Assembly (NCBI RefSeq): GCF_056746865.1
Contig: NZ_CM163382.1
Length of the DNA stretch: 64,000 nucleotides
Reading direction: 5' to 3' (one strand)
Shown: piece by piece, positions 6,813 through 24,555 of the stretch
Numbering within the stretch: position 1 is the stretch's first letter
How the letters are laid out: each line of letters starts with the position of its first letter
Made by a program: the position numbers and the translations under genes
The notes under the pieces: model-generated
Told to the model about the DNA's origin: nothing
Database searches by the model: none
What the model saw: the letters and a program-made list of their open reading frames with translations, nothing else

Positions 6813-6870
6813 CCATCAGCCCGGTCTTGTAGGCCTGATAAGACGCGTGAGCGTCGCATCAGGCAAGGCA
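6813..6870. repeat. REP-type palindromic element in the cysI-cysH spacer
   Basis: Sequence gtaggcctgataagacgcgtgagcgtcgcatcaggc; near-identical copies occur at about 290-370 and 48550-48690. Confidence 0.5.
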
Positions 6871-6885
6871 AACAGTGAGGAATCT

Positions 6886-7620
6886 ATGTCCAAACTCGAT
6901 CTAAACGCCCTGAACGAACTGCCGAAGGTAGATCGCATTCTGGCGCTGGCAGAAACTAACGCCGAACTGGAAAAACTGGACGCTGAAGGCCGCGTTGCCT
7001 GGGCGCTGGATAATCTGCCCGGTGAATATGTACTTTCTTCCAGTTTCGGCATTCAGGCGGCGGTGAGCCTGCATCTGGTGAATCAGATTCGCCCGGATAT
7101 TCCAGTGATCCTCACCGATACGGGTTACTTGTTCCCGGAAACCTACCGCTTTATTGACGAGTTAACGGACAAACTCAAACTCAACCTGAAAGTGTACCGT
7201 GCTACCGAAAGCGCAGCCTGGCAGGAAGCACGCTACGGTAAACTATGGGAGCAGGGCGTTGAAGGCATTGAAAAGTACAATGACATCAACAAAGTCGAAC
7301 CGATGAACCGGGCGCTGAAAGAACTGAATGCGCAAACGTGGTTTGCTGGCCTGCGCCGCGAACAATCCGGCAGTCGCGCCAATTTACCGGTGCTGGCAAT
7401 TCAGCGTGGCGTATTTAAAGTGCTGCCGATTATCGACTGGGATAACCGAACGATATATCAGTATCTGCAAAAACATGGCCTGAAATATCACCCATTATGG
7501 GATGAAGGATATTTATCGGTCGGTGATACCCATACAACCCGTAAATGGGAACCCGGCATGGCGGAAGAAGAAACGCGTTTCTTTGGCTTAAAAAGAGAAT
7601 GTGGGTTACACGAAGGGTAA
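6886..7620 (+). CDS. cysH: Phosphoadenosine phosphosulfate (PAPS) reductase
   Basis: ORF 6733..7620; start at [15 protein letters not shown] gives 244 aa with the C-terminal ECGLH motif of PAPS reductases. Confidence 0.95.
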
Positions 7621-7637
7621 ATATTGCCGGATAAATT

Positions 7638-7676
7638 AAACGCCTCTGTCAGAAATGATGGGGGCGTTTTTATTTT
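7638..7676 (+). terminator. Probable intrinsic terminator after cysH
   Basis: Stem aacgcc...ggcgtt followed by a T-run (ggcgtttttatttt) about 20 bp after the cysH stop. Confidence 0.4.
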
Positions 7677-7883
7677 GCGAGCAGCATTCCTGATTTTAAA
7701 CGTGAACGCCGCTGGAAGAATTATCAGGTATAGAATGGCGTTGGGTGCTTGAGGCTGTCTGGCGTTAAGCATTCGCGAGGTTCCAGATGGACAAAAGCCC
7801 CAGGCGATATTTCTATCAACCTGAGGCCAGCGTTCGAACCTAAGCAATTCGAATGTTAGTCTCTTCTTTGCAGGGAGGCAAGA

Positions 7884-8036
7884 CATGCTGACAAAATATG
7901 CCCTTGTGGCAATCATCGTACTGTGTTGTACAGTACTGGGATTCACGCTGATGGTAGGCGACTCGTTGTGTGAGTTGAGTATCAGAGAACGTGGTATGGA
8001 GTTTAAGGCAGTTCTCGCTTACGAATCGAAGAAGTA
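7884..8036 (+). CDS. hokX: Hok/Gef-family small membrane toxin (type I toxin-antitoxin locus)
   Basis: 50 aa ORF ([50 protein letters not shown]) with a hydrophobic N-terminus and conserved Cys, typical of Hok proteins; SD ggagg 6 nt upstream. Absent from the ORF track because it is under 60 aa. Confidence 0.6.
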
Positions 8037-8058
8037 GCCACCACGCGGGGGTAAAACC

Positions 8059-9397
8059 CATAAGCGCTAACTTAAGGGTTGTGGTATTACGCCTGATATG
8101 ATTTAACGTGCCGATGAATTACTCTCACGATAACTGGTCAGCAATTCTGGCCCATATTGGTAAGCCCGAAGAACTGGATACTTCGGCACGTAATGCCGGG
8201 GCTCTAACCCGCCGCCGCGAAATTCGTGATGCTGCAACTCTGCTACGTCTGGGGCTGGCTTACGGCCCCGGGGGGATGTCATTACGTGAAGTCACTGCAT
8301 GGGCTCAGCTCCATGACGTTGCAACATTATCTGACGTGGCTCTCCTGAAGCGGCTGCGGAATGCCGCCGACTGGTTTGGCATACTTGCCGCACAAACACT
8401 TGCTGTACGCGCCGCAGTTACGGGTTGTACAAGCGGAAAGAGATTGCGTCTTGTCGATGGAACAGCAATCAGTGCGCCCGGGGGCGGCAGCGCTGAATGG
8501 CGACTACATATGGGATATGATCCTCATACCTGTCAGTTCACTGATTTTGAGCTAACCGACAGCAGAGACGCTGAACGGCTGGACCGATTTGCGCAAACGG
8601 CAGACGAGATACGCATTGCTGACCGGGGATTCGGTTCGCGTCCCGAATGTATCCGCTCACTTGCTTTTGGAGAAGCTGATTATATCGTCCGGGTTCACTG
8701 GCGAGGATTGCGCTGGTTAACTGCAGAAGGAATGCGCTTTGACATGATGGGTTTTCTGCGCGGGCTGGATTGCGGTAAGAACGGTGAAACCACTGTAATG
8801 ATAGGCAATTCAGGTAATAAAAAAGCCGGAGCTCCTTTTCCGGCACGTCTCATTGCCGTATCACTTCCTCCCGAAAAAGCATTAATCAGTAAAACCCGAC
8901 TGCTCAGCGAGAATCGTCGAAAAGGACGAGTAGTTCAGGCGGAAACGCTGGAAGCAGCGGGCCATGTGCTATTGCTAACATCATTACCGGAAGATGAATA
9001 TTCAGCAGAGCAAGTGGCTGATTGTTACCGTCTGCGATGGCAAATTGAACTGGCTTTTAAGCGGCTCAAAAGTTTGCTGCACCTGGATGCTTTGCGTGCA
9101 AAGGAACCTGAACTCGCGAAAGCGTGGATATTTGCTAATCTACTCGCCGCATTTTTAATTGACGACATAATCCAGCCATCGCTGGATTTCCCCCCCAGAA
9201 GTGCCGGATCCGAAAAGAAGAACTAACTCGTTGTGGAGAATAACAAAAATGGTCATCTGGAGCTTACAGGTGGCCATTCGTGGGACAGTATCCCTGACAG
9301 CCTACAAAACGCAATTGAAGAACGCGAGGCATCGTCTTAACGAGGCACCGAGGCGTCGCATTCTTCAGATGGTTCAACCCTTAAGTTAGCGCTTATG
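8059..9397 (+). mobile_element. IS186 (IS4 family) insertion sequence
   Basis: 23-bp terminal inverted repeats cataagcgctaacttaagggttg (8059-8081) and its reverse complement (9375-9397), flanked by duplicated ggggtaaaacc; total 1339 bp. Confidence 0.8.
8108..9226 (+). CDS. insL: IS186 transposase
   Basis: 372 aa ORF filling the space between the inverted repeats; recognised as the IS186/IS4-family DDE transposase from memory. Confidence 0.85.
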   Translation: MPMNYSHDNWSAILAHIGKPEELDTSARNAGALTRRREIRDAATLLRLGLAYGPGGMSLREVTAWAQLHDVATLSDVALLKRLRNAADWFGILAAQTLAVRAAVTGCTSGKRLRLVDGTAISAPGGGSAEWRLHMGYDPHTCQFTDFELTDSRDAERLDRFAQTADEIRIADRGFGSRPECIRSLAFGEADYIVRVHWRGLRWLTAEGMRFDMMGFLRGLDCGKNGETTVMIGNSGNKKAGAPFPARLIAVSLPPEKALISKTRLLSENRRKGRVVQAETLEAAGHVLLLTSLPEDEYSAEQVADCYRLRWQIELAFKRLKSLLHLDALRAKEPELAKAWIFANLLAAFLIDDIIQPSLDFPPRSAGSEKKN

Positions 9398-9419
9398 GGG
9401 TAAAACCCCGCGTATTGAA

Positions 9420-9580
9420 TTGTGATGGTTTGGTCTCCTGCACCCTTTTTTAATTTATATTGTTTATGTGAATATTATGCCTATGTTTATTATTCATATA
9501 TATTACTGATGAAAATTATTTGATTATTCATAATGTAAATATTTTATTGGACGATATATATCACAGATAATTTTTAATAT
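9420..9580 (+). promoter_or_regulatory. Extremely AT-rich cas3 upstream region (likely H-NS-silenced promoter)
   Basis: About 160 bp of more than 80% A+T immediately upstream of cas3; cas promoters in E. coli are known H-NS targets. Confidence 0.35.
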
Positions 9581-12280
9581 ATGCGTAAATATCCTTTAAG
9601 TTTACTGAAGGATAAAAATATTGTGACTTTTTTTGATTTCTGGGGAAAAACCCGACGCGGCGAGAAAGACGGGGGCGACGACTATCACCTTCTTTGCTGG
9701 CATTCGCTGGATGTAGCCGCGATGGGCTATTTAATGGTTAAAAGCAATTGCTTCGGACTGGCTGACTATTTTCGTCAATTAGAGATTTCTGACAAGGAAC
9801 AGGCGGCTCAATTTTTCGCCTGGTTGTTGTGCTGGCACGATACTGGTAAATTTGCCCGCTCATTTCAGCAACTTTACCTGCACCCGAAACTCAGGGTTCC
9901 GGAAGGTGCTAGAAAAAATTACGAAAAAATCTCTCATTCAACGCTGGGCTACTGGTTGTGGCATCATTATTTAAGTGAATGTCAGGAGTTACTTCCTTCC
10001 TCTTCACTCTCTCCCCGCAAACTTACACGTGTAATAGCGATGTGGATGCCCATAACTACCGGGCATCATGGTCGCCCGCCTGACCGTATTGATGAACTGG
10101 ATAATTTTCTGCCTGAAGACAAAGCTGCCGCGCGAGATTTTCTTCTTGAAATCAAACCACTGTTTCCGCTCATAGAGATCCCCGCATTCTGGGATGATGA
10201 TGAGGGCATTGAACTTATAAAACACCTTTCCTGGTATATCTCTGCAACCGTCGTACTCGCAGACTGGACGGGATCGTCAGCGCGGTTTTTTCCACGCGTT
10301 GCACAGGCAATGGATATTAAAGATTACTGGCAGAAGGCTTTAGTTCAGGCTCAAAACGCCTTAACCGTCTTTCCTCCAAAAGCACAAACCGCGCCTTTCA
10401 CCGGAATTAATACGCTGTTTCCTTTTATTGAGAATCCGACACCGTTACAGCAAAAGGTGCTGGATCTGGATATCAGCCAGCCAGGGCCACAGTTATTTAT
10501 TCTGGAAGATGTGACTGGCGCAGGTAAAACGGAAGCGGCGCTTATCCTGGCGCACAGGTTGATGGCTGCGGGTAAAGCGCAGGGTTTGTTTTTTGGCCTG
10601 CCAACAATGGCAACGGCCAATGCCATGTACGATCGACTGGTCAAAACCTGGCTTGCTTTCTATTCGCCAGAGTCCCGCCCCAGCCTGGTGCTGGCACACA
10701 GTGCCCGAACATTAATGGACCGCTTTAATGAATCACTCTGGTCCGGTGATTTAGTCGGGTCAGAAGAACCGGATGAACAAACGTTCAGTCAGGGATGTGC
10801 GGCCTGGTTTGCCGACAGTAACAAGAAGGCGCTACTGGCTGAAATTGGCGTCGGCACGCTGGATCAGGCGATGATGGCTGTGATGCCGTTCAAACATAAT
10901 AATCTGCGGCTTCTGGGACTGAGTAACAAAATCCTGCTGGCTGATGAGATCCATGCCTGTGACGCTTACATGTCATGCATTCTTGAAGGGCTGATCGAGC
11001 GGCAGGCGCGTGGCGGAAACAGCGTCATTTTGCTTTCTGCCACGTTATCTCAACAGCAGTGCGACAAACTCGTTGCTGCCTTTGCGCGTGGTACAGAGGG
11101 CCAGCAAGAAGCTCCGTTCCTGGAAAAGGATGATTACCCCTGGCTGACGCACGTTACGAAATCCGATGTGCATTCACACCGGGTAGCGACGCGCAAAGAC
11201 GTTGAGCGTAGCGTGAGCGTGGGTTGGCTTCATAGCGAACAAGAATGTATTGCGCGTATCGAATCGGCAGTAAGTCAGGGGAAATGCATCGCCTGGATCC
11301 GGAATTCTGTCGATGACGCTATTAAGGTTTATCGTCAGTTGCTTGCCCGCGGCGTCATTCCTGCTTCCAGCCTTTCTCTGTTTCATAGCCGCTTTGCTTT
11401 TAGCGATCGCCAGCGAATTGAAACGGAAACGCTGGCACGCTTCGGTAAAGAAGATAGCTCACAGCGTGCCGGAAAAGTCCTCATTTGTACTCAGGTCTTA
11501 GAGTCGAGCGTTGATTGCGATATGGACGAAATGATTTCCGACCTGGCCCCTGTTGATTTGCTGATCCAGCGAGCGGGGCGATTACAGCGGCATATCCGCG
11601 ATATTAATGGTCAGTTAAAGCGTGACGGAAAAGACGAGCGTTCCCCTCCTGAATTGCTGATTCTGGCCCCCGTCTGGGACGACGCTCCAGGTGACGAATG
11701 GTTCGGCAGTGCCATGCGTAACAGTGCATATGTCTATCCCGATCATGGACGAATCTGGCTGACGCAGCGTGTACTGCGTGAGCAAGGCGCTATTCAAATG
11801 CCACACGCAGCCCGCCTTCTTATTGAATCAGTCTACGGTGAGGACGTGGTAATGCCGGAAGGATTTGCCCGCAGCGAGCAGGAGCAAGTGGGCAAATATT
11901 ACTGCGATCGCGCAATGGCTAAAAAGTTTGTGCTGAACTTCAGGCCTGGCTATGCCGCCAATATCAACGATTACCTTCCGGAAAAGCTGTCGACACGTCT
12001 GGCGGAGGAGTCTGTTTCCCTGTGGCTGGCTACCTGTATTGCCAGTGTGGTGAAGCCTTATGCCAACGGTGCTCACGCATGGGAAATGAGCGTTGTCAGA
12101 GTGCGTCGAAGCTGGTGGAAAAAACATCGGGATGAGTTTTCTTTACTGGAAGGGGAAGCGTTCAGGCAGTGGTGCATTGAACAGCGGAAAGATCCGGAGA
12201 TGGCAAACGTGATTTTAGTTACCGATGACGAAAGTTGCGGGTATTCGGCTATGGAAGGATTGACTGGCAAGGTTGGTTGA
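9581..12280 (+). CDS. cas3: CRISPR-associated nuclease/helicase Cas3 (type I)
   Basis: 899 aa ORF with an N-terminal HD domain (HSLDVAAM...HDTGKF), helicase Walker A (DVTGAGKTEA) and a DExH box (LLADEIH). Confidence 0.9.
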   Translation: MRKYPLSLLKDKNIVTFFDFWGKTRRGEKDGGDDYHLLCWHSLDVAAMGYLMVKSNCFGLADYFRQLEISDKEQAAQFFAWLLCWHDTGKFARSFQQLYLHPKLRVPEGARKNYEKISHSTLGYWLWHHYLSECQELLPSSSLSPRKLTRVIAMWMPITTGHHGRPPDRIDELDNFLPEDKAAARDFLLEIKPLFPLIEIPAFWDDDEGIELIKHLSWYISATVVLADWTGSSARFFPRVAQAMDIKDYWQKALVQAQNALTVFPPKAQTAPFTGINTLFPFIENPTPLQQKVLDLDISQPGPQLFILEDVTGAGKTEAALILAHRLMAAGKAQGLFFGLPTMATANAMYDRLVKTWLAFYSPESRPSLVLAHSARTLMDRFNESLWSGDLVGSEEPDEQTFSQGCAAWFADSNKKALLAEIGVGTLDQAMMAVMPFKHNNLRLLGLSNKILLADEIHACDAYMSCILEGLIERQARGGNSVILLSATLSQQQCDKLVAAFARGTEGQQEAPFLEKDDYPWLTHVTKSDVHSHRVATRKDVERSVSVGWLHSEQECIARIESAVSQGKCIAWIRNSVDDAIKVYRQLLARGVIPASSLSLFHSRFAFSDRQRIETETLARFGKEDSSQRAGKVLICTQVLESSVDCDMDEMISDLAPVDLLIQRAGRLQRHIRDINGQLKRDGKDERSPPELLILAPVWDDAPGDEWFGSAMRNSAYVYPDHGRIWLTQRVLREQGAIQMPHAARLLIESVYGEDVVMPEGFARSEQEQVGKYYCDRAMAKKFVLNFRPGYAANINDYLPEKLSTRLAEESVSLWLATCIASVVKPYANGAHAWEMSVVRVRRSWWKKHRDEFSLLEGEAFRQWCIEQRKDPEMANVILVTDDESCGYSAMEGLTGKVG

Positions 12281-12371
12281 GATGCCTGCGACAGGGCTCT
12301 CTGAATAGTTGATACACCGAAAAGGATGGAATGATGGACAACCGACCTAGGATGGTCTTTTTTACGAGAGG

Positions 12372-13940
12372 ATGCGTATGAACTCGTTTTCACTTCTGAC
12401 AACCCCGTGGTTGCCCGTTCGTTATAAAGACGGAACGACAGGCAAACTGGCGCCTGTCGATCTGGCGGATGAAAATGTTGTCGATATTGCTGCGCCACGG
12501 GCAGATCTCCAGGGAGCGGCATGGCAGTTTTTGCTGGGGCTACTACAAACCAGCTTTGCGCCAAAAGATCATCGTCGTTGGGATGATATCTGGGAAGACG
12601 GACTGGAATCTGAAAAGCTACGGGAAGCATTGCTGTCCTTAGAACACGCTTTCCAGTTTGGGCCAGATTCCCCTTCATTTATGCAGGATTTCGAGGCGCT
12701 CACAGGAGATAAAGTTCAGGTCGCTTCGCTACTGCCTGAGATTCCCGGCGCTCAAACAACGAAGTTTAATAAAGACCACTTTATCAAGCGTGGTGTAACG
12801 GAATACCTGTGCCCACATTGTTCTGCGTTAGCTCTGTTCTCCCTACAGTTAAATGCGCCGTCAGGTGGTAAAGGCTACCGCACCGGTTTACGCGGCGGTG
12901 GGCCGATGACCACTCTGATTGAATTACAGGAATATCAGGGCAATCAACAAACGCCCTTGTGGCGCAAACTGTGGCTCAATGTGATGCCGCAGGACGAAGC
13001 CGACTTACCGCTACCCAAAAAATTTGACGATCTGGTTTTCCCCTGGCTTGGCCCGACGCGTACCAGCGAACTGGCCGGTGCGGTGGTAACCGATGATCAG
13101 GTTAATAAACTCCAGGCGTACTGGGGAATGCCGCGGCGTATTCGTATTGATTTTAATACCACGACAGTCGGCAACTGCGATATTTGCGGCGAGCAGAACG
13201 ACGCGCTCCTGAGCCTGATGACGACCAAAAATTACGGCGCGAATTATGCCATGTGGCAGCATCCCTTAACGCCTTACCGTGTACCCCTTAAAGAGGGCGG
13301 CGAGTTTTACTCGGTCAAACCACAACCAGGCGGTTTAATCTGGCGCGACTGGTTAGGCCTTATCGAAACGGGTAAATCAGAAAACAATACGGAACTTCCC
13401 GCGCTGGTGGTGAAACTCTTTAATGCCAGCAGTCTCAAGCAGGCAAAAGTGGGCCTGTGGGGATTTGGTTATGATTTTGACAACATGAAAGCGCGCTGTT
13501 GGTACGAACACCATTTTCCGCTGCTGCTCGATAAAAAAGAAGGCCAGATACCGAAGCTGCGGCTGGCTGCGCAAACGGCTTCACGGATTCTGAGTCTGTT
13601 ACGGAGTGCATTGAAAGAAGCGTGGTTCTCCGATCCAAAAGGTGCACGGGGTGATTTCAGTTTTGTGGATATCGACTTCTGGAACAAAACTCAGCATCGC
13701 TTCCTGAGGTTAGTGCGCCACATTGAAGAAGGTCAGGATGCGGATGAATTACTCAGCAAATGGCAAAAGGAAATTTGGTTATTCGCGCGTCAGGATTTTG
13801 ACGAGCGTGTCTTCACCAATCCATATGAGCCCGTTGATTTGAAACGCGTCATGACCGCGCGCAAGAAATATTTTACAACATCGGCGGAGAAGCAAAATGC
13901 TAAAGCCGCCAGGGAGAAAAAGCAGGAGGCTGCTGAATGA
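12372..13940 (+). CDS. cse1: Cascade large subunit Cse1 (CasA), type I-E
   Basis: 522 aa ORF directly after cas3; the central segment GKGYRTGLRGGGPMTTLIELQ resembles the conserved Cse1 glycine-rich region. Confidence 0.85.
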   Translation: MRMNSFSLLTTPWLPVRYKDGTTGKLAPVDLADENVVDIAAPRADLQGAAWQFLLGLLQTSFAPKDHRRWDDIWEDGLESEKLREALLSLEHAFQFGPDSPSFMQDFEALTGDKVQVASLLPEIPGAQTTKFNKDHFIKRGVTEYLCPHCSALALFSLQLNAPSGGKGYRTGLRGGGPMTTLIELQEYQGNQQTPLWRKLWLNVMPQDEADLPLPKKFDDLVFPWLGPTRTSELAGAVVTDDQVNKLQAYWGMPRRIRIDFNTTTVGNCDICGEQNDALLSLMTTKNYGANYAMWQHPLTPYRVPLKEGGEFYSVKPQPGGLIWRDWLGLIETGKSENNTELPALVVKLFNASSLKQAKVGLWGFGYDFDNMKARCWYEHHFPLLLDKKEGQIPKLRLAAQTASRILSLLRSALKEAWFSDPKGARGDFSFVDIDFWNKTQHRFLRLVRHIEEGQDADELLSKWQKEIWLFARQDFDERVFTNPYEPVDLKRVMTARKKYFTTSAEKQNAKAAREKKQEAAE

Positions 13941-14473
13941 GTATTGTAAAAGAGGAGCACAAAGCCACGCTGCGTAAATGGCACGAAGAGTTGCAGGAAA
14001 AACGCGGCAATCGTGCCAGTCTGCGGCGTAGCACAACGGTTAATGATGTTTGTCTGTCAGAAGGGTTTCGTTCTCTGCTGATGCAGACCCACACTTTGTG
14101 GAAAATTGAAGCACAAGAGTGGCGTTTTACCGCACTGGCGCTGGTCGCCGCAGTTAGCGCCAATGTTAAAGCTATTGATGAACGGCAGCCTTTTGCCGCG
14201 CAGCTGGCGGCGGTAATGTCGGAGGGGCGTTTTACTCGCCTGTCGGCAGTAAAAACGCCTGATGATTTACTGCGTCAGTTACGTCGCGCGGTCAAATTAT
14301 TAAATGGTTCCGTCAATCTTATCTCTTTGGCAGAAGATATTTTCCGCTGGTGCCAGGAGAGCGACGACCTGCTCAATCATCACCGCCGCCAGCAGCGGCC
14401 AACAGAATTTATCCGTATCCGCTGGGCGCTGGAATATTACCAGGCTGGCGACGCCGATAACGAACAAAATTAA
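13937..14473 (+). CDS. cse2: Cascade small subunit Cse2 (CasB), type I-E
   Basis: 178 aa basic helical protein; 4-nt overlap with the cse1 stop. Confidence 0.85.
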   Translation: MSIVKEEHKATLRKWHEELQEKRGNRASLRRSTTVNDVCLSEGFRSLLMQTHTLWKIEAQEWRFTALALVAAVSANVKAIDERQPFAAQLAAVMSEGRFTRLSAVKTPDDLLRQLRRAVKLLNGSVNLISLAEDIFRWCQESDDLLNHHRRQQRPTEFIRIRWALEYYQAGDADNEQN

Positions 14474-14487
14474 TAAAGGACTATCTC

Positions 14488-15543
14488 ATGACGACATTTA
14501 TTCAGCTTCATTTGTTAACCGCTTACCCTGCTGCCAACCTTAACCGTGATGACACCGGTGCGCCAAAAACTGTGGTACTGGGTGGAGCAACGCGTCTGCG
14601 CGTTTCCTCACAAAGTCTGAAACGTGCGTGGCGCACTTCTGCACTTTTTGAACAGGCACTGGCGGGCCATATTGGTATTCGCAGTGGGCGTATTGCGCGT
14701 GAGGCGGCAACTATCCTGATTGAGAAAGGCATCGAAGAGAAAAAAGCCATCGAATGGGCGGCAAAAATTGCGGATTATCTTGGGAAAGCTAAAAACGACA
14801 AAAAACCAAAAGATCCGCTCACTAACGCCGAAACTGAACAGCTAGTCCATATCAGCCCGGCAGAATTTGACGCCGTAAAAGCGCTGGCCCATCAACTGGC
14901 CGAAGAAAAGCGCGCGCCAAAAGAGGAAGATCTCGCTTTGTTACGTAAAGATCGCATGGCGGTAGATATCGCTATGTTTGGTCGTATGCTGGCGAATAAA
15001 CCCGAATTTAATGTTGAAGCCGCCTGCCAGGTCGCGCATGCATTTGGTGTCAGTGAAACGATTGTCGAAGATGATTTTTTCACCGCCGTTGATGATTTGC
15101 GCCAGGCTTCTGAAGATGCCGGTGCCGGGCATCTTGGTGAAACCGGATTCGGTTCTGCGCTGTTCTACACCTATATCTGCATCGATAAAGATCTGCTGGT
15201 CGAAAACCTCGGCGGTGACGAAGCGTTAGCTAATCAGACCTTGCGCGCCTTTACGGAAGCCGCACTTAAAGTCTCCCCAACCGGCAAACAGAACAGCTTT
15301 GCCAGCCGTGCCTACGCCTCCTGGGCGCTGGCAGAAAAAGGCACTGAACAACCACGCTCTCTGGCGGCGGCTTTCTATGAACCCATTAATGGCACCCGGC
15401 AGTTAGATGTGGCGGTGCAGCGTATTACAACGCTTCGCGAAAATATGAATACGGTCTATGAACAGAAGACCGAATGCGCAAGCTTTGACGTGATGAACAA
15501 ACAGGGAAGCATGAAGGACGTGCTGGACTTTATCTGCGCGTAA
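14488..15543 (+). CDS. cas7: Cascade backbone subunit Cas7 (CasC/Cse4), type I-E
   Basis: 351 aa ORF with N-terminus MTTFIQLHLLTAYPAANLNRDDTGAPKTV...LRVSSQSLKRAWR matching the Cas7e N-terminal consensus. Confidence 0.85.
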   Translation: MTTFIQLHLLTAYPAANLNRDDTGAPKTVVLGGATRLRVSSQSLKRAWRTSALFEQALAGHIGIRSGRIAREAATILIEKGIEEKKAIEWAAKIADYLGKAKNDKKPKDPLTNAETEQLVHISPAEFDAVKALAHQLAEEKRAPKEEDLALLRKDRMAVDIAMFGRMLANKPEFNVEAACQVAHAFGVSETIVEDDFFTAVDDLRQASEDAGAGHLGETGFGSALFYTYICIDKDLLVENLGGDEALANQTLRAFTEAALKVSPTGKQNSFASRAYASWALAEKGTEQPRSLAAAFYEPINGTRQLDVAVQRITTLRENMNTVYEQKTECASFDVMNKQGSMKDVLDFICA

Positions 15544-15553
15544 GGGGCGGCTA

Positions 15554-15628
15554 ATGAGCCAATATTTGATTTTTCAGCTTCATGGGCCAATGGCATCCTG
15601 GGGCGTCGATGCCCCGGCGAAGGGAACA
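15554..15628 (+). pseudogene. cas5: 5' fragment of cas5 (casD); coding similarity ends after about 25 codons
   Basis: Translation MSQYLIFQLHGPMASWGVDAPAKG matches the Cas5e N-terminus (MxxYLIxxLxGPMxxWG), but the remainder (TIQHHTRPVIARILRVLKSILYTFLYTF...) is non-Cas-like and runs into repeats. No cas6e/cas1/cas2 follow. Confidence 0.6.
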
Positions 15629-15685
15629 ATACAACATCACACAAGGCCAGTAATAGCGCGAATCCTGCGAGTTCTAAAATCAATT

Positions 15686-15709
15686 CTATACACATTTCTA
15701 TACACATTT
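15686..15709. repeat. 12-bp tandem direct repeat (tctatacacatt x2) at the element's left end
   Basis: Exact tandem duplication read directly from the sequence. Confidence 0.4.
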
Positions 15710-16113
15710 ATCCCTCGCTTGAGGGTTATGCGTCATCGTTATCGGCTATCTCGCTGGTGGATGATCACGGATGGCCTGATATCTACAGCCGCCTTAAAAA
15801 GCTGTACCCGACAAGCATTACTGCGTATCGGGTTCGTTCGCTCTTTCTACTCGTGGCAGATGAGTTTATCGGTGTGATTTTATCGGGCGAGGGTATTGTA
15901 TCAGGCATCCCCTTTTCTATGCAGATTTGCATAGTTCCGAATGGTGGCGTTATGGAAGCCTCCCATATCAGCATCATGCCCACCAGCGTGAAGTATTTTT
16001 TTATTTCGCGGGTGTAAAAATTTGACGAGGCGGGCGGTCCCATAAGCAATGGATTGTAGGGATTTCGCTCCCCCCCTCCTGAATGCAATTTTTCGTATAT
16101 ATATACAAAACAG

Positions 16114-16269
16114 TGCGGGTTATGCGGGTTACCGGGTTATCTTAGTATGCTAACTATTTTTTGTTCTTTAGTATCAATATGTTGCAAAATACACTGTTCA
16201 TTATTCAAGCATCACATAACCCGCAAAACATCCCAAATAACCCGCAAACGCCCCAAAATAACCCGCAAA
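16114..16269. repeat. Iteron cluster A (crr-like cis replication region)
   Basis: Three direct copies gcgggtta(t/c) at 16114-16140, an AT-rich spacer of about 75 bp, then three inverted copies ataacccgcaaa at 16216, 16237 and 16258 (21-bp spacing). Confidence 0.6.
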
Positions 16270-16876
16270 CACATTGCTGAAAGCAGGGGTTGATAGTTCC
16301 ACTGGTGCCACAGAACGGCTGAATACGGTAACTGTTGCTGGTGGTCTGTCCTGTTGTCGTTCCAGTCTCATCAAATTGAGAGGCAAGACAAAGTGCATTT
16401 TTGCACTATAGCCAAAGCCTCATAAAACAGAGTTACCCCCACAGGCTGGCAAACCATTACCCAACGCAATTAAGTGCGTCAGAATCGATTACAGCGCGTT
16501 CCTGTGGCACGTTGTTGCCGTTCTCAGCAGTGAAAGGAGAGAGTGAAAAGCGCATATCTATTACTGTTGAGGGGTGTAGCGGCATATATCGCGAATATCC
16601 ACGCCCTTAATCCCGATACCGTCACGGCGCATTGAGATCCACCAGAAGATTAAGATAGTTTTTACCTGAAATTATCCAAATAATTGTTTTAACTGATTAA
16701 TTTTTCGAATATCTATTGTTAGGGAATAAATCATCAGATACACCATAAAACGACATCTTTCAGGGTGTAGAAGATGCAAAGCCGGTACTGAAGAAAAGAC
16801 AAAGAATATGAATGGCTGGCCACACGATGGAAGGATTGTCCATTGAAGGATAAATCCCCGTGGTACAAGTTTTGGT

Positions 16877-16900
16877 AAGCCCGCAGCGCGGGCTTTTTTG
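16877..16900 (+). terminator. Intrinsic terminator (aagcccgc-agc-gcgggctt + T6)
   Basis: Perfect GC-rich hairpin followed by tttttt; ends a roughly 250 bp region without a convincing ORF. Confidence 0.5.
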
Positions 16901-16971
16901 TGGACGAAACAAAAGTCAGTGCTACATTCATTGACGCCACATCGAGGTGGCTTATAGATGGAAATTTCACA

Positions 16972-17133
16972 ATGAAAAAAGCATTTGCTGCACTGTTCGT
17001 TTTGTTGTCTCTGGTAGCTTCAACTCAGGCCTTTGCCGGTCGTTGTCAGCACGACAGCGATACTGCCGCTGACGGCTCCCGCTGCGGTGGGCGTTCTGCG
17101 GATTCCCGCCCGGGCGGCGGTGGCATTCGTTAA
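16972..17133 (+). CDS. Small secreted Gly/Arg-rich protein (hypothetical)
   Basis: 53 aa: MKKAFAALFVLLSLVASTQAFA signal peptide followed by a Gly/Arg/Cys-rich tail; the internal start of the 16900..17133 ORF is preferred because of the signal peptide. Confidence 0.35.
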   Translation: MKKAFAALFVLLSLVASTQAFAGRCQHDSDTAADGSRCGGRSADSRPGGGGIR

Positions 17134-17138
17134 AAACA

Positions 17139-17160
17139 AGGCCGCGAAAGCGGCCTGTTT
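17139..17160. terminator. Bidirectional intrinsic terminator between convergent genes
   Basis: Hairpin aggccgc-gaaa-gcggcct with A/T-rich flanks on both sides, between the 16972..17133 (+) and 17163..18014 (-) genes. Confidence 0.5.
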
Positions 17161-17162
17161 GA

Positions 17163-18014
17163 TCACTGTGCAGTTTTCGCTGATCGATTTTCAGCTCTAA
17201 ATTCAAGAACCGTTTCAATATTTCTTTCCTTCAGCATATCAATAACATTTTTATTCATTTGACTATCACTGGTTAATAACTGGTAAACGTTGCTTCTCTC
17301 TTTATCAGAATTTTCTTTAACAGCTGCTTTGCATGCCAAATGCTTATTGAAATTTTCTACATCGCTAGTACAGGAATTTACGGCTGCTGATGAAATATCA
17401 GACGCTGAAGAAACACCATCATCCAAACGTTTTATAGCATTTTCTATACATGAGTTAAGGGAATAAACGACAACTGAGCGATACCCTTCAGACGCACACC
17501 ATTCTAAATTTCTTGAAGGATCGAGTGGTTTTACTTCGCTGGATTGAATTAACTTGTCAAAAACTGACTTATATTCAATCTGTTTTTTATCTATAGCCCA
17601 TACTTCAGTAGCTGATTTATAATTCCCCGTATGCCTATTAACATCAAATCCATGTTTTATAAGCAAATCTGCCCATGAAAGATTTATTGATTCATTGTTA
17701 TGAGGCCATTTTCCTGTCAGAACCGCCCCCATAGACCCCATATATCCGCCATATGATGGTATAGCACCATGGCTCAGTAACTTCTCAGCAACCACAGGGC
17801 AATTAATTACATAAGAGGCGTAAAGCCCATTCCATAAAGCCCCTCTATAGTAATCGCCACGATTAGGTTCTTTTAAGTCGATAGCCTTTGATAATTGTTC
17901 ACACGTTTTGCATGCATCAAAGTTATCCTTATTGCATTGCAATGAACTGGCGGCTGTAGGATTTACAGAGACTATTGAAAGCACTATGCCAAAAAACAAA
18001 TTTATTTTTTTCAT
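17163..18014 (-). CDS. Secreted Cys-rich protein of unknown function (third gene of cargo operon)
   Basis: 283 aa; N-terminal signal peptide MKKINLFFGIVLSIVSVNPTAAS, multiple Cys pairs, possible ankyrin-like helical repeats (weak); start lies 1 nt after the stop of the 1129 aa gene. Confidence 0.7.
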   Translation of the reverse strand: MKKINLFFGIVLSIVSVNPTAASSLQCNKDNFDACKTCEQLSKAIDLKEPNRGDYYRGALWNGLYASYVINCPVVAEKLLSHGAIPSYGGYMGSMGAVLTGKWPHNNESINLSWADLLIKHGFDVNRHTGNYKSATEVWAIDKKQIEYKSVFDKLIQSSEVKPLDPSRNLEWCASEGYRSVVVYSLNSCIENAIKRLDDGVSSASDISSAAVNSCTSDVENFNKHLACKAAVKENSDKERSNVYQLLTSDSQMNKNVIDMLKERNIETVLEFRAENRSAKTAQ

Positions 18015-18015
18015 C

Positions 18016-21000
18016 CTATTTCATCTGCTCTTCAACTTTATTTAGTAATGGTGATATCGCCCACAGATTCTGAAAAGGTAGCATTTTACGGACAGCGTGG
18101 GTTTGCTGGCTGTCAAATTCTCCGTTAAGTACACCATTTGCAACCGTCGCGGCATCACCGCCAAGATCAAAGGTAGGACCAAGTAAAGCACCAATAGCAT
18201 TACGACTCTGAAACCTTGATACCGGAGGCGCACCAAACATCGCGCCAAGACCAAACCTACCGCCGCTTATGTTCTCAACGGTATTCAGCGGCTCAGAGAG
18301 CCAGCCAAGCATTCCGCCCCGGTCGATCCCCTCTTTCACAAGGTTATTCCAGCTGTAGTCGATATCGCGACCGCTTAACTTCTGTTTCATCATATAGACC
18401 ATTGAGCCAAGCGCAATCGTGCCAAGCGCACCAAGATAGAATGAAGCATCGCCCTGCTGGATACCAGATACCAACACCCTGTTATGCTGTGCGAAGATAA
18501 ACGTTTTGAACTGCGTGATCATCTTCCAGCCTTCTTTACTAAAAAACAGCGGTGTATCACCTACGCCAGGCGTTACAATCACTGAGTCTACATCTTTCAG
18601 CACTGCAGACTGGAAAATCTCTCTAGCGAAACGGTCATCCCACAGATGACTATGCCCGGTTAACAGCCCGTCCATATCCTCTCCGTGCTTCCCGAATTGC
18701 TCCCCGATTCGGCGCAGAACATCTTCATTGATGCCGACCTGTGCCATCTTCCGCATTTCACTTTTGGCGAGCGTGCCACCAGCAGAAACCTGGCGAGCCG
18801 CGTCAAGTATCCTCGACTGCACTATCATCCCGGACCATGATTTAAGTGCGCTGTTCCACTGATTCATCAGCGTCCAGTTACCGAATTTCTGCGTCATCCA
18901 GTTCAGGCCTCGCTCAGCGGCGCTTCTCCGGCTATAGGGGTCAGTAAGATCCGCTATAGCCTTTGTACGCGTAGACAGGACATAATCAAGCCCAACGGCC
19001 ATTTCTCGCAAATCCCTGGTTGCAATTTTCACTGAGTCCATATTTTTAAGCATGCTTACCATTGGTCCGAGAGATTTTCTCAGGCCATGCTGCATCATCG
19101 GTCGCATCAGATCAGTTGCAGCGGAGACGGTCATTCCACCAAGCAAACGGAGGAAGTTAATATTCCTAGCAACTCGCCCGGCACGAACAAAGAAACTGCG
19201 TGGATCTTGAGGTGCGCCGTAAGTACCAAGCAGTCGGTCACGCATAGCCGTAATATCCCTAATATCAGCCTCCCGTTGCTTCTCAAGAGCTGCACGTCGT
19301 TTAGGTGTTTTAGCCTCTTTTATTAGCCGGGTATATTCCTCACTAACCTGACGGATTTGCTCCCCCATATCTTTACGGCCAAACTGCGCAGTCAGCTCAA
19401 TTTCTGGTGCCACCTGCCGGAGATAACTTTCCATGATGTAGTTAACATCTGATTCAAGAAAATCTTCTATACGCTCATCAGGAATAAGCAGCGTTCGGCT
19501 TTTAGTGAAACCAGCCCGACCAACGAGTCTCTCTGGGATAATATCGGCTGGTACAAGCCCGGAAGGTGCGCCTATTATTTTATTCACGATCTCGTCAGCA
19601 GCGTCCTCTGCTTCCTCTCGGGATAGAGGCTCCATCTGCTTCAGTGCTCGCTCGCGGCTTGCATTCAGCCTTGTGGTTGAATTTGCCCGTTTTTGCAGTC
19701 GGCGAAGCTCAGAACGATATTTCCGTGGATTATCCAGCAACTCCATATGGCGCTGATAGACAGGAAGCTCACTCTTTGCCTGCGCTATATCATCAAGGCG
19801 TGTTTTAAGGTCAGAGCTTTCTTTCATCATTCTTGCCTGAAGTTTTTCTGATGAAGTCTCGGCCAACTCTTTTTCTATTCTTGTAAGACGCGCCTGTGTG
19901 TCAGTCTCCTGAGATATAAGCTTATTTCGTTTATCCAGTTCTTCCATGAGTAGAATTTTTTTACCAGACCATTTCTCCGCTTCAGCGATTTCACTAGCGA
20001 GAGCATCAGCGCGCGGTGCCGATTCCTCTGCAGTTTTTAGCAATGAATTTATCCTTTCAATTCGCTGACCTGCTTTGTCAGCACCTTTGGCACTAATCCC
20101 TTGTATCCAGTTGGCAATTCGCCCTCTGAATTCAGTGCGGTCGGAAAGTATCTTATCGAACTTATAAATGCGGGGAAGATAACTTTTCGCCGTCACGACA
20201 TCGATATCCTCAGGAAGGATCCCCAGTTCCTGCATACGGGCTTTTGTGGTCTCGAAAATGGGGCGGATTCTGGCGGCTGCTTGTGAAACCTCAGGAATAT
20301 CACTCTGATCACCACGGCGCATAGCCATGCCAACAGCTTCATTGAAATCAATAAAGCTCATCCTCTTCACGCCGCGGGCGCTGACAGATTTGCTGTACTG
20401 CTGGTAAGCATCACGAGTGGCTTCCATCTGCTTATAAAGCATGGCGTCGTATTGCTTAATCTTAGTCTCGACTGCCGTAAACGTAGCCAACCCCTCATCA
20501 TTTTTGGCGAAGAAATAGTTATTTTCGGCAAGCTGCTGGTTAATCTGACGGGAGACAAGAGATGGTGATTGCGCCAAGCGGCCAGCAGGAGTGACACTCA
20601 ACGTTTTGTTAGCAAGTCCAAGTCCAGCGAGCTGTTCCTGATCGAGTGTGGTATTGAAAACCTGAGCTGCACCAATGCTTTGAGGAGAATCCATACCTCG
20701 CAAATGATTACCTACTGAGTTAACCACTGCCTCGCGCGCGCTAGGTCCAGCAAGTAGCTGTGCACCAGCACCAAGGATCCCACCAACGAGAGCATCAACA
20801 ACAACGTTCGATACGCTCTCCATCGGTGAGCGAGCTTCCTGAGTGGCCTGCAATGCGGCCTCTGAAGCAACACTGCCAGCAGCATTGGCTAAAGCAAAAC
20901 GTCCGGCTGTTTCTGCAATACGACCGCCACGAACGACAGCGCCGAACGGAATAAACATAGAAATCGCATTGAATGGATCTGCTAATCTCATTGCTACAGA

Positions 21001-21405
21001 AGAGACTGTACCAGCAAATCCCAAGCCTGAATTGTATTCCATGTCAGCTCTCTGCTGATCGATTCGATGTTTAATTGCCATTGTTTCTTCAGGCGAACCG
21101 GAGTTGATAAACGAATCTGCAAAATCTTCATAGCCTTTAATATCTGCTGCATCGTTATCAAATGGGTTATATCCTTCAATCCTGTCAAACTGACTGAAAG
21201 GAGCACTGGCAATAAAGCTACCCAGCGTGTTATCTATACGAAATGCTGCTTGTCTAGACCTTTGAACGCGTTGATCACTGGTAAATGGGTTCACAGCAGA
21301 AAGCAAAGAAGGTGTTTCCATATAGAAATTACTGTCATCAGGTGCTGCTATTTGCTGAATATCCTCGCCAAGCAACTCTTTAGGATCCTGTTCATATATC
21401 GGCAT
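18016..21405 (-). CDS. Very large protein of unknown function (1129 aa; second gene of cargo operon)
   Basis: Long uninterrupted ORF; small-residue-rich hydrophobic segments (GAGAQLLAG, GALGTIALGSMVYMM, GLGAMFGAPP), long coiled-coil-like Glu/Lys/Arg/Gln-rich stretches, no P-loop or HExxH motif. Start codon overlaps the stop of the upstream 915 aa gene (TAATG). Confidence 0.75.
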   Translation of the reverse strand: MPIYEQDPKELLGEDIQQIAAPDDSNFYMETPSLLSAVNPFTSDQRVQRSRQAAFRIDNTLGSFIASAPFSQFDRIEGYNPFDNDAADIKGYEDFADSFINSGSPEETMAIKHRIDQQRADMEYNSGLGFAGTVSSVAMRLADPFNAISMFIPFGAVVRGGRIAETAGRFALANAAGSVASEAALQATQEARSPMESVSNVVVDALVGGILGAGAQLLAGPSAREAVVNSVGNHLRGMDSPQSIGAAQVFNTTLDQEQLAGLGLANKTLSVTPAGRLAQSPSLVSRQINQQLAENNYFFAKNDEGLATFTAVETKIKQYDAMLYKQMEATRDAYQQYSKSVSARGVKRMSFIDFNEAVGMAMRRGDQSDIPEVSQAAARIRPIFETTKARMQELGILPEDIDVVTAKSYLPRIYKFDKILSDRTEFRGRIANWIQGISAKGADKAGQRIERINSLLKTAEESAPRADALASEIAEAEKWSGKKILLMEELDKRNKLISQETDTQARLTRIEKELAETSSEKLQARMMKESSDLKTRLDDIAQAKSELPVYQRHMELLDNPRKYRSELRRLQKRANSTTRLNASRERALKQMEPLSREEAEDAADEIVNKIIGAPSGLVPADIIPERLVGRAGFTKSRTLLIPDERIEDFLESDVNYIMESYLRQVAPEIELTAQFGRKDMGEQIRQVSEEYTRLIKEAKTPKRRAALEKQREADIRDITAMRDRLLGTYGAPQDPRSFFVRAGRVARNINFLRLLGGMTVSAATDLMRPMMQHGLRKSLGPMVSMLKNMDSVKIATRDLREMAVGLDYVLSTRTKAIADLTDPYSRRSAAERGLNWMTQKFGNWTLMNQWNSALKSWSGMIVQSRILDAARQVSAGGTLAKSEMRKMAQVGINEDVLRRIGEQFGKHGEDMDGLLTGHSHLWDDRFAREIFQSAVLKDVDSVIVTPGVGDTPLFFSKEGWKMITQFKTFIFAQHNRVLVSGIQQGDASFYLGALGTIALGSMVYMMKQKLSGRDIDYSWNNLVKEGIDRGGMLGWLSEPLNTVENISGGRFGLGAMFGAPPVSRFQSRNAIGALLGPTFDLGGDAATVANGVLNGEFDSQQTHAVRKMLPFQNLWAISPLLNKVEEQMK

Positions 21406-24152
21406 TATTTGCCCCCTGCGTATATATTGCTCGGAAGGTAATTGGCTGAACCATAACCGAATGGTTTGGTCAGATCTGGAGGAGTATATCCATCTTTATT
21501 GCTGAACTGCGGCAGCGGATTGCCTTCTCTCCGCACTCTAGCCTCATCAACACGCTGTTGCTGGAACTGAATGGTTTGCCTGTACATTGGAGATGTCAGC
21601 TGATCCGGCTTGAAACGAACAGGGAGACCATTTTCTCCAATATAATTTCTCGGTTCTATCGCTCCGTTTGCGTCAGGCTGTAAAACCATAACAGCATAAC
21701 TCCTATCCCTTGCCGTAAGGCCATCAGAAACAAGTATTAAGTCCGTATCACTGCGAGGACCGCCAAAGGATTTTGATTTAAGCTCGCGTTTTTCCTGCTC
21801 CCACTGCCCCTGTATCCAGTTACCAGCACCATTATTTACTCCGTACAATGCCTCAGGTGCATACTTCATAACCTCTGCTTTGCCATTAACCGTAGAAACT
21901 CCCCAGGTGGTTCTGATCATGGCATTGGTCATTTTCTCAGCCTGTTCTGCATCGCCACCTGTCTGTACAAAGTTAGCATCGTAAATTGTCTGGTAATCTC
22001 GCTGATAGGCCGCATTTGATTTTCCTGGATCGGTAATATCCGGAGACCACGAACCAAAGGAAGTCAGACTGCTGGCGTTATTTTGTGCAGCAGTTACCCT
22101 CGCCGCGACATATTTTTTGTCTCGCATGGCAGTGGAAAGCATCTGTTTCATTCGGTCATCCTGTTGGAACACCTGACTGTAAGCCATATCAACAGCCTTA
22201 TCCTCCGGCACGCCAGCGCGGGAATAATCGTAAACCTTGCCATAAAATGCCATCGTACTTTTATCAAGTGTTGCCGCTGCCGCCGGATTATTATCGAATA
22301 ACTGACCGTAGAATTTTGCCATCGGGACAACCAGCGCAGGATCTCTTGATGTTGCTCCACTGTTAAGCATTGTTTTAACCTGAGTTGGTATCATGCCGCT
22401 TTTAGTTGTGACGGTGACCAGTGTATTGATGCTCTGCGGATCAGATATGGAAAACGAAGGCGCGATATCCTGCGCGAAATAACGGTCTACCGCTGCCTGA
22501 TTGTTTTTGTCGTTCGGGTCCAGCGGGAAGTTATTTTGCATTGAAGACACGAACCTGTTTCTTCCCTGCTGAATCTCCCACTCCCTATCCATCTCTTTAA
22601 ATTTGGCCTGCATTTTCTCCCAGCGTTGCTGGTTAGCAGCAAATCCAGGAGCATTTGGATCCTGTGGACGTAAACGTTCAAGAATGTCTTGTCGTCCTTC
22701 TGGAGTGAGGTCTTTAGCGGCACCAATGACACCTCCATATTGTATCTGCGCCTGCATATCCTTCCACTTCATAGCGCCAATGCGCGGACCATTGGCCCGG
22801 ATAAAATCGTCCTCAGAAGGTAACTTCTCAGGTTTCAATCCTTCATCAAGGGCTGAATATGCATCTTTAACTACGGTGCTAAGCTGGTCCGCATACTGCT
22901 GGCGGTACTGATTTCTCAGCTCATTAGCCTGCCTCAATGCCTGTATTTGCATTTGAGGGCTCATAGCATCAAATGCCGCATTGCCCGTATAACGCTTAGG
23001 TGAATCAAGGTTAGTTAGACCAAGGGCTGCCGAGATACCAGTTTCAAGCTGTTCGGTGCTATAAGGCATACTGCCATTTTCGTGTTTAATAATCCCAGCA
23101 CATAAAGCAGCTAGTGTCTTTGGGTTAGAGATATCAAGCTGATCATTCTCCCCAACACCAAGCTCACCACACAATGCCCTAATATAAGCATCAGTATTAT
23201 TACCATCACTAGCCGGAGCATAGCGATTAACAATCTCGCTAACGGTGTCATAGCCTTGACGCTGGTAAGACAACATATTTTTACCCAACGCGCGGATTCC
23301 ATGCTCAGGGGTAGCAAACGTTGCAAAACGTCCATCGCTACCGATCTGACCTTCCCACGGGTTAGATTTGCTCGCTTCAATATTACCAGGGTTATTATTA
23401 CGTAAACCACGAGCATCCAATGAATTACCATGTGATATTGCACGACTCACACCATCAAGATCCCCTGGCTCTCCATTAACCTGAAGAAACTCGTTGTATT
23501 TTTGAGCGATATTTCCTATCCATGCTTGCTGCCCCATTTGTTCCTTGAGCTGAGTTTTCTGCTGAACACGCCACTCATCAGGAAGCCCATGCGCATCAGC
23601 GTATTGATCAATAGATTCAAATCGCTGCTTGGCTAAATCGACAAATGCTTGGTTATAGCTATATAGCCCCGCAGACTGAGTGACAGCCAATGCATTTCCT
23701 GACAAATACGTTTGATCTTGGAATTGCTGAAACTGCCCAACTTCATATCGACGTGCCTGATTGTAATAAGACTGCATAGACTGCTGGAGTTGAAAGGATA
23801 ATTTATTCCTTTCCTCACTTTCAGGGATTGAGCCTAATAATGCCTGAGCCCTTTCCTGCATATTTTTCATAACAGCGTCACTCTGACCAAGAGCGTTTTT
23901 ACCCTGTTTAGAAATCAGCCCATTTTCAGGGTTGTTAATCTGGTCATCTGCAAATTGGTTAAATTGCAGTAACGCCTCCTGGGCCATAGCAACATTCGCT
24001 TTCTGCCTGGCTTCACCATATGCCACCGCATACTGATCTGCGACATTCGCCAGCACCTGACCTGCTTGAGGAACATCGAAGGTCTGAAAACCACCGGTTT
24101 GCACACCACGACTTTGCACCTGGCGTCCGGATGTAGTAGGAACAACAAGCAT
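21405..24152 (-). CDS. Very large protein of unknown function (915 aa; first large gene of cargo operon)
   Basis: Long ORF preceded by strong SD (AGGAGGT 6 nt upstream); Gln/Ala-rich helical protein with a central block RNNNPGNIEASKSNPWEGQIGSDGRFATFATPEHGIRALGKNMLSYQ that looks like a conserved domain I cannot assign. Confidence 0.75.
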   Translation of the reverse strand: MLVVPTTSGRQVQSRGVQTGGFQTFDVPQAGQVLANVADQYAVAYGEARQKANVAMAQEALLQFNQFADDQINNPENGLISKQGKNALGQSDAVMKNMQERAQALLGSIPESEERNKLSFQLQQSMQSYYNQARRYEVGQFQQFQDQTYLSGNALAVTQSAGLYSYNQAFVDLAKQRFESIDQYADAHGLPDEWRVQQKTQLKEQMGQQAWIGNIAQKYNEFLQVNGEPGDLDGVSRAISHGNSLDARGLRNNNPGNIEASKSNPWEGQIGSDGRFATFATPEHGIRALGKNMLSYQRQGYDTVSEIVNRYAPASDGNNTDAYIRALCGELGVGENDQLDISNPKTLAALCAGIIKHENGSMPYSTEQLETGISAALGLTNLDSPKRYTGNAAFDAMSPQMQIQALRQANELRNQYRQQYADQLSTVVKDAYSALDEGLKPEKLPSEDDFIRANGPRIGAMKWKDMQAQIQYGGVIGAAKDLTPEGRQDILERLRPQDPNAPGFAANQQRWEKMQAKFKEMDREWEIQQGRNRFVSSMQNNFPLDPNDKNNQAAVDRYFAQDIAPSFSISDPQSINTLVTVTTKSGMIPTQVKTMLNSGATSRDPALVVPMAKFYGQLFDNNPAAAATLDKSTMAFYGKVYDYSRAGVPEDKAVDMAYSQVFQQDDRMKQMLSTAMRDKKYVAARVTAAQNNASSLTSFGSWSPDITDPGKSNAAYQRDYQTIYDANFVQTGGDAEQAEKMTNAMIRTTWGVSTVNGKAEVMKYAPEALYGVNNGAGNWIQGQWEQEKRELKSKSFGGPRSDTDLILVSDGLTARDRSYAVMVLQPDANGAIEPRNYIGENGLPVRFKPDQLTSPMYRQTIQFQQQRVDEARVRREGNPLPQFSNKDGYTPPDLTKPFGYGSANYLPSNIYAGGK

Positions 24153-24248
24153 CAGTAACCTCCTATTTTGAATCGGGAGTCAGAATTCATAAAACCTGAG
24201 TTAGATAACATTGGCGTCCCTCTGCTTTGATGCTGTACCAGCGATTCA

Positions 24249-24455: not shown

Positions 24456-24555
24456 AGCAATTTCCTCTTACTGACTAAACTATGCACATTATTGATCTGA
24501 AAAAGTGGTAGATAAACATATTTCTATCACAAAAACAGATTAATTGATTTCAGCC

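Follow-up and report, generated by a model that had tools for sequence, protein, structure and literature searches.

cas5e as a probable secondary attachment site for the integrase of a glyU island in Escherichia coli, associated with a chromosomal inversion

Secondary att sites are described for phage lambda (Rutkai et al. 2006, as cited in PMC10111431), and Salmonella genomic island 1 has a secondary chromosomal site (PMC2297512). The locus described here resembles these in having a strong primary site, an occasional site that shares little beyond the crossover segment, and clean reciprocal junctions. It differs in that the occasional site lies in a CRISPR-associated gene and recurs in several lineages, and in that the outcome in the DNA analysed appears to be an inversion and not an insertion. 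Chromosomal inversions driven by the integrase of pTN3 occur in the Thermococcales (PMC5495485), where too a mobile-element integrase inverts large segments via att-like sequences related to tRNA genes. The pTN3 integrase is of low specificity, acts in a manner resembling homologous recombination on segments down to 104 bp, and does so frequently (PMC5495485), whereas the exchange discussed below takes place within a 7-bp core and is a rare one, with a cas5e junction in 1 of 5,426 complete genomes.

Insertion of a mobile element that physically disrupts a CRISPR-Cas locus is also known. A prophage of Streptococcus pyogenes integrates in CRISPR repeats (Varble et al., 10.1101/2020.10.09.333658; Nat Microbiol 2021, cited in PMC10359306), and IS insertions in cas genes are documented (PMC10359306). 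The CRISPR repeat is the regular attB of the S. pyogenes phage, whereas for our island glyU has that role and cas5e is a look-alike used occasionally. E. coli phage satellites of the PICI type and their attP architecture have been characterized (PMC6092414, PMC10111431), with co-oriented doubled motifs located 81 and 132 bp from the attP centre (PMC10111431). Our island is like the PICIs in having integrase, AlpA, primase, Icd-like and antirepressor genes, and doubled motifs at ~80 and ~130 bp from the attP centre. The motif is TGTATTGC in the PICIs but CTATACRC here, and the copy analysed has an additional cargo of internal virion protein genes; the likeness is one based on genes. No description of cas5e as an integration site was found in a literature search. 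The mechanism would be of a known kind, and cas5e as its target is apparently undescribed.

The window (i.e. the whole stretch of DNA analysed, 64,000 nt in length) is E. coli chromosome, and is made up as follows.

1-8059: E. coli chromosome from ygcQ to cysJIH, with hok/gef
8059-9397: extra IS4-family element
9397-15622: cas3, casA, casB and cas7e, then the first part of cas5e, with 99.98% identity to strain 118UI
15616-35115: the island, with ~98% identity to those located at glyU in CS5L, SCU-105 and ~20 other complete genomes
35098-35171, minus strand: tRNA-Gly(CCC), glyU, the primary attachment site (ARAGORN)
From 35098, collinear to 64000: glyU, actS, xdhABC and onwards

As in other strains, glyU is followed by actS and xdhABC. 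The IS4-family element is ~1.3 kb in length, lies between hok/gef and cas3, and has a 372-aa transposase ORF (8108-9226). It is missing at this position (8059-9397) in 118UI, SCU-105 and ETEC1747. Sister contigs (GCA_046604685.1 and L027) end just upstream of cas3, which suggests that the insertion is shared.

An 11-nt identity between the cas5 breakpoint and the 3′ region of the tRNA-Gly had been noted in a sequence-only reading of this DNA. The 11-mer GGCGAAGGGAA is present on the plus strand of the window in exactly two copies, at 15616-15626 and 35105-35115. Thus the repeat and its direct orientation stand, while the first copy begins one base before the position given earlier (15617). The second copy is located inside the tRNA-Gly(CCC) assigned by ARAGORN to 35098-35171, in the T-arm and acceptor region as had been stated. 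In the sense of the tRNA it reads TTCCCTTCGCC, running from the final 2 nt of the T-loop through the 3′ strand of the T-stem to the fourth nucleotide of the 3′ acceptor strand. One particular 11-mer such as this has a chance expectation of 0.03 in the window. The previous estimate of about one chance 11-nt match between the tRNA and 64 kb of sequence was fair, the arithmetic (64 words x 128,000 positions / 4^11) giving ~2. The significance of the 11-mer lies in its position at the junction, and this is borne out by the comparative data.

The junction and its partner in the tRNA have the following elements.

15554-15622, plus strand: cas5e 5′ fragment, codons 1-23 plus 1 nt (99.98% identity to 118UI from cas3 on)
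15616-15622, plus strand: recombinant core GGCGAAG (from an alignment of nine junction sequences)
15616-15626, plus strand: the 11-mer, i.e. the 7-bp core plus 4 nt (GGAA) of island arm
35097-35115, plus strand: 19-nt identity block TTGGAGCGGGCGAAGGGAA, i.e. the tRNA 3′ end, with the core copy at 35105-35111

The match to the intact cas5e of 118UI stops at 15622, so the breakpoint is inside the 11-mer; the earlier placement of the 11-mer where the Cas5-like coding sequence ends was therefore correct. At this site the intact gene reads cccccGGCGAAGtgcg, and has only the 7 bp GGCGAAG in common with the tRNA and the att site. These encode part of Gly22-Glu23-Val24 of Cas5e. The first 7 nt of the 11-mer are native to cas5e, and GGAA was brought by the island arm. 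An 11-nt identity is indeed present at the breakpoint, but the identity that existed beforehand was of 7 bp and the 11-mer arose by the recombination.

The parental sequences are gcccccGGCGAAGtgcgtc (intact cas5e) and ttggagcgGGCGAAGggaacaatac (far-end att of a normally-placed island), and the product at the window junction is gccccGGCGAAGggaacaatac. Read over a greater length the sequences are gatgcccccGGCGAAGtgcgtcatacc for intact cas5e, gataaattggagcgGGCGAAGggaacaatacaac for the far end of a normally-placed island, tgtttggagcgGGCGAAGggaatcgaaccc for the tRNA side and gatgccccGGCGAAGggaacaatacaac for the window junction. In the last, the base to the left of the core is of cas5e type and that to the right is of island type, so that the exchange is limited to 15616-15622. 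The two recombinant junction words are CCCCGGCGAAGGGAAC and GAGCGGGCGAAGTGCG.

We note that the C run to the left of the core (15612-15615) has four cytosines in the window, while the intact alleles have C5. The missing C was considered as a scar of the exchange, and rejected. The other junction-bearing genomes whose sequence was read have C5 next to the core, and the C4 frameshift also occurs where cas5e is uninterrupted, in FORC_044 and in three Logan assemblies. The C4 run of the window would be a later change or recurrent slippage, or a sequencing error, and not part of the exchange.

The principal features of the island are these.

15623-35104: integrative island, ~19.5 kb, PICI-like, normally at glyU
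15686-15708, plus strand: doubled motif CTATACACATT x2, candidate arm-type sites of the integrase-distal arm, 78 bp from the core centre
17163-24152, minus strand: cargo of three genes, whose products are like the T7 internal virion proteins gp14, gp16 and gp15 (283, 1129 and 915 aa, respectively; PHROGs)
24786-25994, minus strand: TnpB, IS200/IS605 family, inserted in the island (NCBIfam guided_TnpB, 391 bits)
27153-29279, minus strand: DUF927 primase-helicase of the island (phrog_1139; CS5L annotation DUF927)
32368-32565, minus strand: AlpA-type helix-turn-helix protein, candidate excisionase or regulator (the GCA_046604685.1 orthologue matches PF05930 Phage_AlpA)
33719-34933, minus strand: P4-type tyrosine integrase, 404 aa, intact (Pfam domains and motifs)
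34931-34985: three CTATACRCWTT copies, candidate arm-type sites of the integrase-proximal arm

The match between the island and its counterparts at glyU in CS5L and SCU-105 (98% identity) starts at 15615/15616. The same island is found at glyU in about 20 complete E. coli genomes, with yqeG or ETT2 beyond its far side. The regular site of the element is thus glyU and not the CRISPR-Cas locus (~20 complete genomes versus 1). Normally-placed islands are bounded by an 18-19-bp repeat of the tRNA 3′ end (CS5L, SCU-105, ETEC1747); the sequence repeated at their far end is TTGGAGCGGGCGAAGGGAA or has one G fewer. The form lacking one G, found in several of these islands, is TTGGAGCGGCGAAGGGAA (L004 ~6000, L008 ~12561), and GCA_031020925.1 has a G-to-T change in the island arm (TTTTGAGCGGGCGAAG). 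Elsewhere in the window there is no second copy of TTGGAGCGGGCGAAGGGAA, even allowing up to 3 mismatches. The idea of a secondary site thus meets no competing attL in the form of a longer or better direct repeat of the tRNA 3′ end in the window.

Strain 08-00022 (L028 4190-4320) was examined as a case of another secondary site, and rejected; a second element with its own integrase and a capsid gene lies there in tandem at glyU. Its junction is a few bases further into the T-loop (GGAATCGA followed directly by ggaaaccc), so that two integrase types have neighbouring crossover points in one tRNA.

A PICI has an integrase, AlpA and a primase/replication module in ~10-15 kb of DNA, and is mobilised by a helper phage. 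The island is consistent with this in its gene content, and sister copies of it are 10-12 kb in length. Over its full length the cargo region (window 16900-24200) has 99.4% identity to EC.W1-9 (PP445227.1), a temperate Escherichia phage. SCU-105 has different large ORFs at the cargo position, and the sister island of GCA_046604685.1 has none. The TnpB segment (24742-26491) is missing in the islands of CS5L, SCU-105 and GCA_046604685.1.

A P4-family integrase had been proposed to be encoded beside the tRNA, and the intact 404-aa ORF located 164 nt from it has the three domains expected. The Pfam matches are PF13356 Arm-DNA-bind_3 (4e-26), PF22022 Phage_int_M (1e-32) and PF00589 Phage_integrase (7e-28), i.e. 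the P4-type architecture of N-terminal Arm-DNA-bind_3 (DUF4102), central SAM-like and C-terminal Phage_integrase catalytic domains. NCBIfam PRK09692 scores the protein at 329 bits, under its cut-off of 434 bits. The translation contains LRPGE, HGFRH, LAHV and RGTY, so that the Arg, His-x-x-Arg, His/Trp and Tyr residues are present, as assigned by motif. The integrase is 100% identical to those of normally-placed islands, and therefore no specialised variant is involved.

Of the candidate arm-type sites on the integrase side, a doubled CTATACRCWTT copy at 34963-34985 is 134 bp from the core centre. A scan of the window for CTATACRCWTT gave nine matches against 2.9 expected, five of the nine being at the island ends. 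The spacing of the motifs (78 and 134 bp) is like that of the PICI attPs, which supports the assignment of GGCGAAG as the probable crossover centre; the motifs would be bound by the arm domain of the integrase.

The same junction is present in other genomes. ETEC1747 has a 12-kb relative of the island inside cas5e, with both junctions (left cccccGGCGAAGggaacaatac, right ttggagcgGGCGAAGtgcgtcat) exchanged exactly within GGCGAAG; the insertion is clean and reciprocal. A second copy in this genome, 99.9% identical and with an intact integrase, is located at glyU in the opposite orientation. GCA_036681765.1 has a plain insertion at the same nucleotide, in which the full island with an intact 404-aa integrase lies beside the cas5e 3′ part. 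In GCA_031020925.1 and SRR17709973 the integrase-proximal arm of the island is joined to the cas5e 3′ part, with the cas allele of the window. In SRR8989464 the left junction is located on yet another cas allele, the third, which is ~95% identical to the other two. The last four genomes (GCA_036681765.1 to SRR8989464) were found by exact-protein look-ups with the hybrid ORFs.

Thus three cas alleles, with pairwise identities of ~95%, and two variants of the island end have one and the same junction nucleotide. The alleles diverge within 70 nt of the junction, so there have been at least two independent events at one nucleotide, and comparison of the alleles suggests that there were probably three. 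Among complete E. coli genomes the cas5e junction is present in 1 of 5,426, compared with ~20 that have the island at glyU, and exchange at cas5e is therefore a rare side reaction. Exact-pattern scans gave no recombinant junction in the GTDB species representatives (two intact cas5e genes only), and nothing in IMG/VR or in JGI metagenomes. Look-up of the 107-aa ORF of the window that fuses cas5′ to the island (the C4 version) gave no match in the collection searched, and a look-up of the hybrid Cas5e protein (118UI allele with the island-arm start codon) was likewise without match.

Following insertion the island arm supplies the cas5e 3′ part with a TTG start codon (ETEC1747 23116-23811; also L011-L014). 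The product is annotated as an intact 'cas5e' (WP_247179630.1, 231 aa, N-terminus MFGAGE...), so that annotation pipelines hide the disruption of the gene.

The order in SCU-105 is xdhA, actS, glyU, integrase, island, far-end att, ETT2, ~137 kb, cysJIH, and cas3 to cas5e. The cas genes and glyU are on the same strand in SCU-105, whereas the window has cas on the plus and glyU on the minus strand. In the normal chromosome the two cores have opposite orientations, so that exchange between them flips the interval. This implies that the window arose by a chromosomal inversion of roughly 105-137 kb and not by a simple insertion; the distance of 137 kb was measured on SCU-105, and ~105-110 kb is estimated for a background without ETT2, e.g. 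that of SRR23378764. In GCA_046604685.1 a single 138-kb contig carries cas3 to cas5′, the island in a 10-kb form with its integrase, tRNA-Gly and actS, so the arrangement is real and heritable and not a misassembly.

Such an inversion has a second end. The predicted reciprocal junction was constructed from CS5L and 118UI, with the flank of yqeG leading into TTGGAGCGGGCGAAG and tgcgtcat, and then the cas5e 3′ part. This synthetic junction had no match among 5,426 complete E. coli genomes. It is present in contig_16 (42 kb) of SRR23378764, base for base in the junction region read; the flank of yqeG runs into gataaaTTGGAGCGGGCGAAGtgcgtcat and then the cas5e 3′ part, cas6e, cas1 and cas2, with no island at the site. 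The gene order on the contig is galR, lysA, lysR, ygeA, araE, kduD, kduI, yqeF, yqeG, cas5e 3′ part, cas6e, cas1, cas2. SRR23378764 also has the left junction of the window, and from cas3 to 780 nt into the island differs from it by one SNP and the length of the C run. The reciprocal end is thus seen in a closely-related genome, outside the window, and that of the source strain itself is not provably the same. The reciprocal junction of SRR23378764 carries the core, as expected if the exchange took place there. Both in ETEC1747 and in SRR23378764 the reciprocal junctions share the core and have swapped flanks, with no bases lost or gained.

We consider that the 11-mer is a recombinant att site, and that the P4-type integrase of the island recombined the island att with a secondary site in cas5e; we would put the probability of this at about 87%. 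The island att site is a copy of the 3′ end of the glyU tRNA-Gly, with which the cas5e site shares only the 7-bp GGCGAAG. The tyrosine recombinase would exchange strands within this short shared segment. In the ordinary chromosome the sites are oppositely oriented and ~105-137 kb apart, and exchange would invert all between them. As a result the far end of the island now has next to it a segment with cysJIH, cas3, casA, casB and cas7e, which ends 69-70 nt into cas5e. The remainder of this gene, together with cas6e, cas1, cas2 and CRISPR-1, is predicted to lie beside yqeG, beyond the limits of the window. The sequences of the junctions are observed directly, as are the matching reciprocal junction of a sister genome, the repeated use of one nucleotide and the inverted orientation, and from these we infer that the integrase probably catalysed the exchange. 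The suggestion that the integrase recombined at a secondary att-like site within cas5e thus gains from the reciprocal junctions and from the insertion in ETEC1747. The location of the site in cas5e is retained, while three points are refined: the identity is 7 bp, the outcome is an inversion, and the C4 run does not come from the exchange.

The rearrangement could have proceeded by three routes that give one product. The first would be a single step, i.e. recombination of the far-end att of the island with cas5e. In the second, insertion into cas5e would come first, followed by integrase-mediated exchange with glyU. In the third, two island copies in inverted orientation would undergo homologous recombination, with excision afterwards. 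The third route would restrict the role of the integrase to the initial insertion into cas5e, with the inversion resulting from homologous recombination between the copies at glyU and cas5e. ETEC1747 holds exactly such a substrate, with its two 99.9%-identical inverted copies, and the junctions of island arm and cas5e 3′ part in GCA_031020925.1 and SRR17709973 could be an intermediate or a reciprocal product. Against this, the island-free reciprocal junction of SRR23378764 would require an additional precise excision, the unbroken island in the 138-kb contig of GCA_046604685.1 suggests a single copy, and the junction at 15616-15622 would still have been made by the integrase. We therefore regard homologous recombination between two copies as rather unlikely to have generated the inversion. 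The island-free reciprocal junction appears to favour a route ending in site-specific exchange, and all three routes need integrase action at the cas5e core.

An origin independent of the integrase, by illegitimate recombination at a chance microhomology, is highly improbable. Seven base pairs is a typical length for microhomology and GGCGAAG is common (37 sites in 171 kb), but the exchange is precise and reciprocal with no base lost or gained, the same nucleotide was hit again on three cas alleles, and one partner is always the island att core, with arm-like motifs at the spacing of a PICI attP. We give almost no weight to a misjoin across the repeated island as the source of the cas5′-island-glyU layout; two-copy islands of 10-20 kb (as in ETEC1747) can mislead assemblers and draft contigs do end at the island arm (L013, L014, L016), but the layout recurs in the independent NCBI assembly GCA_046604685.1, within a 138-kb contig, and both inversion junctions are present in the independent Logan assembly SRR23378764, one without any island.

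Given recombination by the integrase, there is the question of why cas5e is used. The 37 occurrences of GGCGAAG in 171 kb of E. coli DNA extrapolate to ~1,000 sites per genome. Similarity of the flanks to attB was tried as the reason and set aside as unconvincing; the cas5e site matches at 13 of 30 positions, the best found, but 35 background GGCGAAG sites match at up to 12 of 30. Preference, tolerance of insertion, selection or the centring of our search on cas5e could each account for the recurrence. That cas5e is a selected alternative target and not an accidental look-alike, its recurrence reflecting a benefit to the island or to a helper phage, seems doubtful to us.

One CRISPR-1 spacer (L002 10218-10249), present in 118UI and GCA_031020925.1, matches the gp16-like gene at 28 of 32 positions (window 19129-19160, minus strand). 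These two genomes share the cas allele of the window, and the match has a non-canonical ATA PAM. A self-targeting spacer was considered as the selective pressure, and not adopted, there being one match only, of 28/32 and with an ATA PAM, to a cargo that is missing in the sister island. The spacer is possibly the memory of a related podophage; as a lead towards selection of cas5e it is weak, and any self-targeting pressure would be weak at best.

The type I-E operon is presumably inactive, being split. Cascade would be left without Cas5e, and cas6e, cas1, cas2 and CRISPR-1 would be cut off from the cas promoter. If the island were excised from the present arrangement, glyU would lose its 3′ end.

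From the cas5e junctions, crossover by the glyU integrase can be placed in a 7-bp part of the 19-bp identity block. The junctions also account for the truncated or 'hybrid' cas5e found in some E. coli, and listed as intact (WP_247179630.1) or as a partial pseudogene. The locus provides a natural example of the probable off-target action of an island integrase, in which a CRISPR-Cas operon has been split, and presumably disabled, and >100 kb of chromosome appears to have been inverted. If the use of cas5e were selected, site-specific integration into a cas gene would be an added route of escape from CRISPR immunity.
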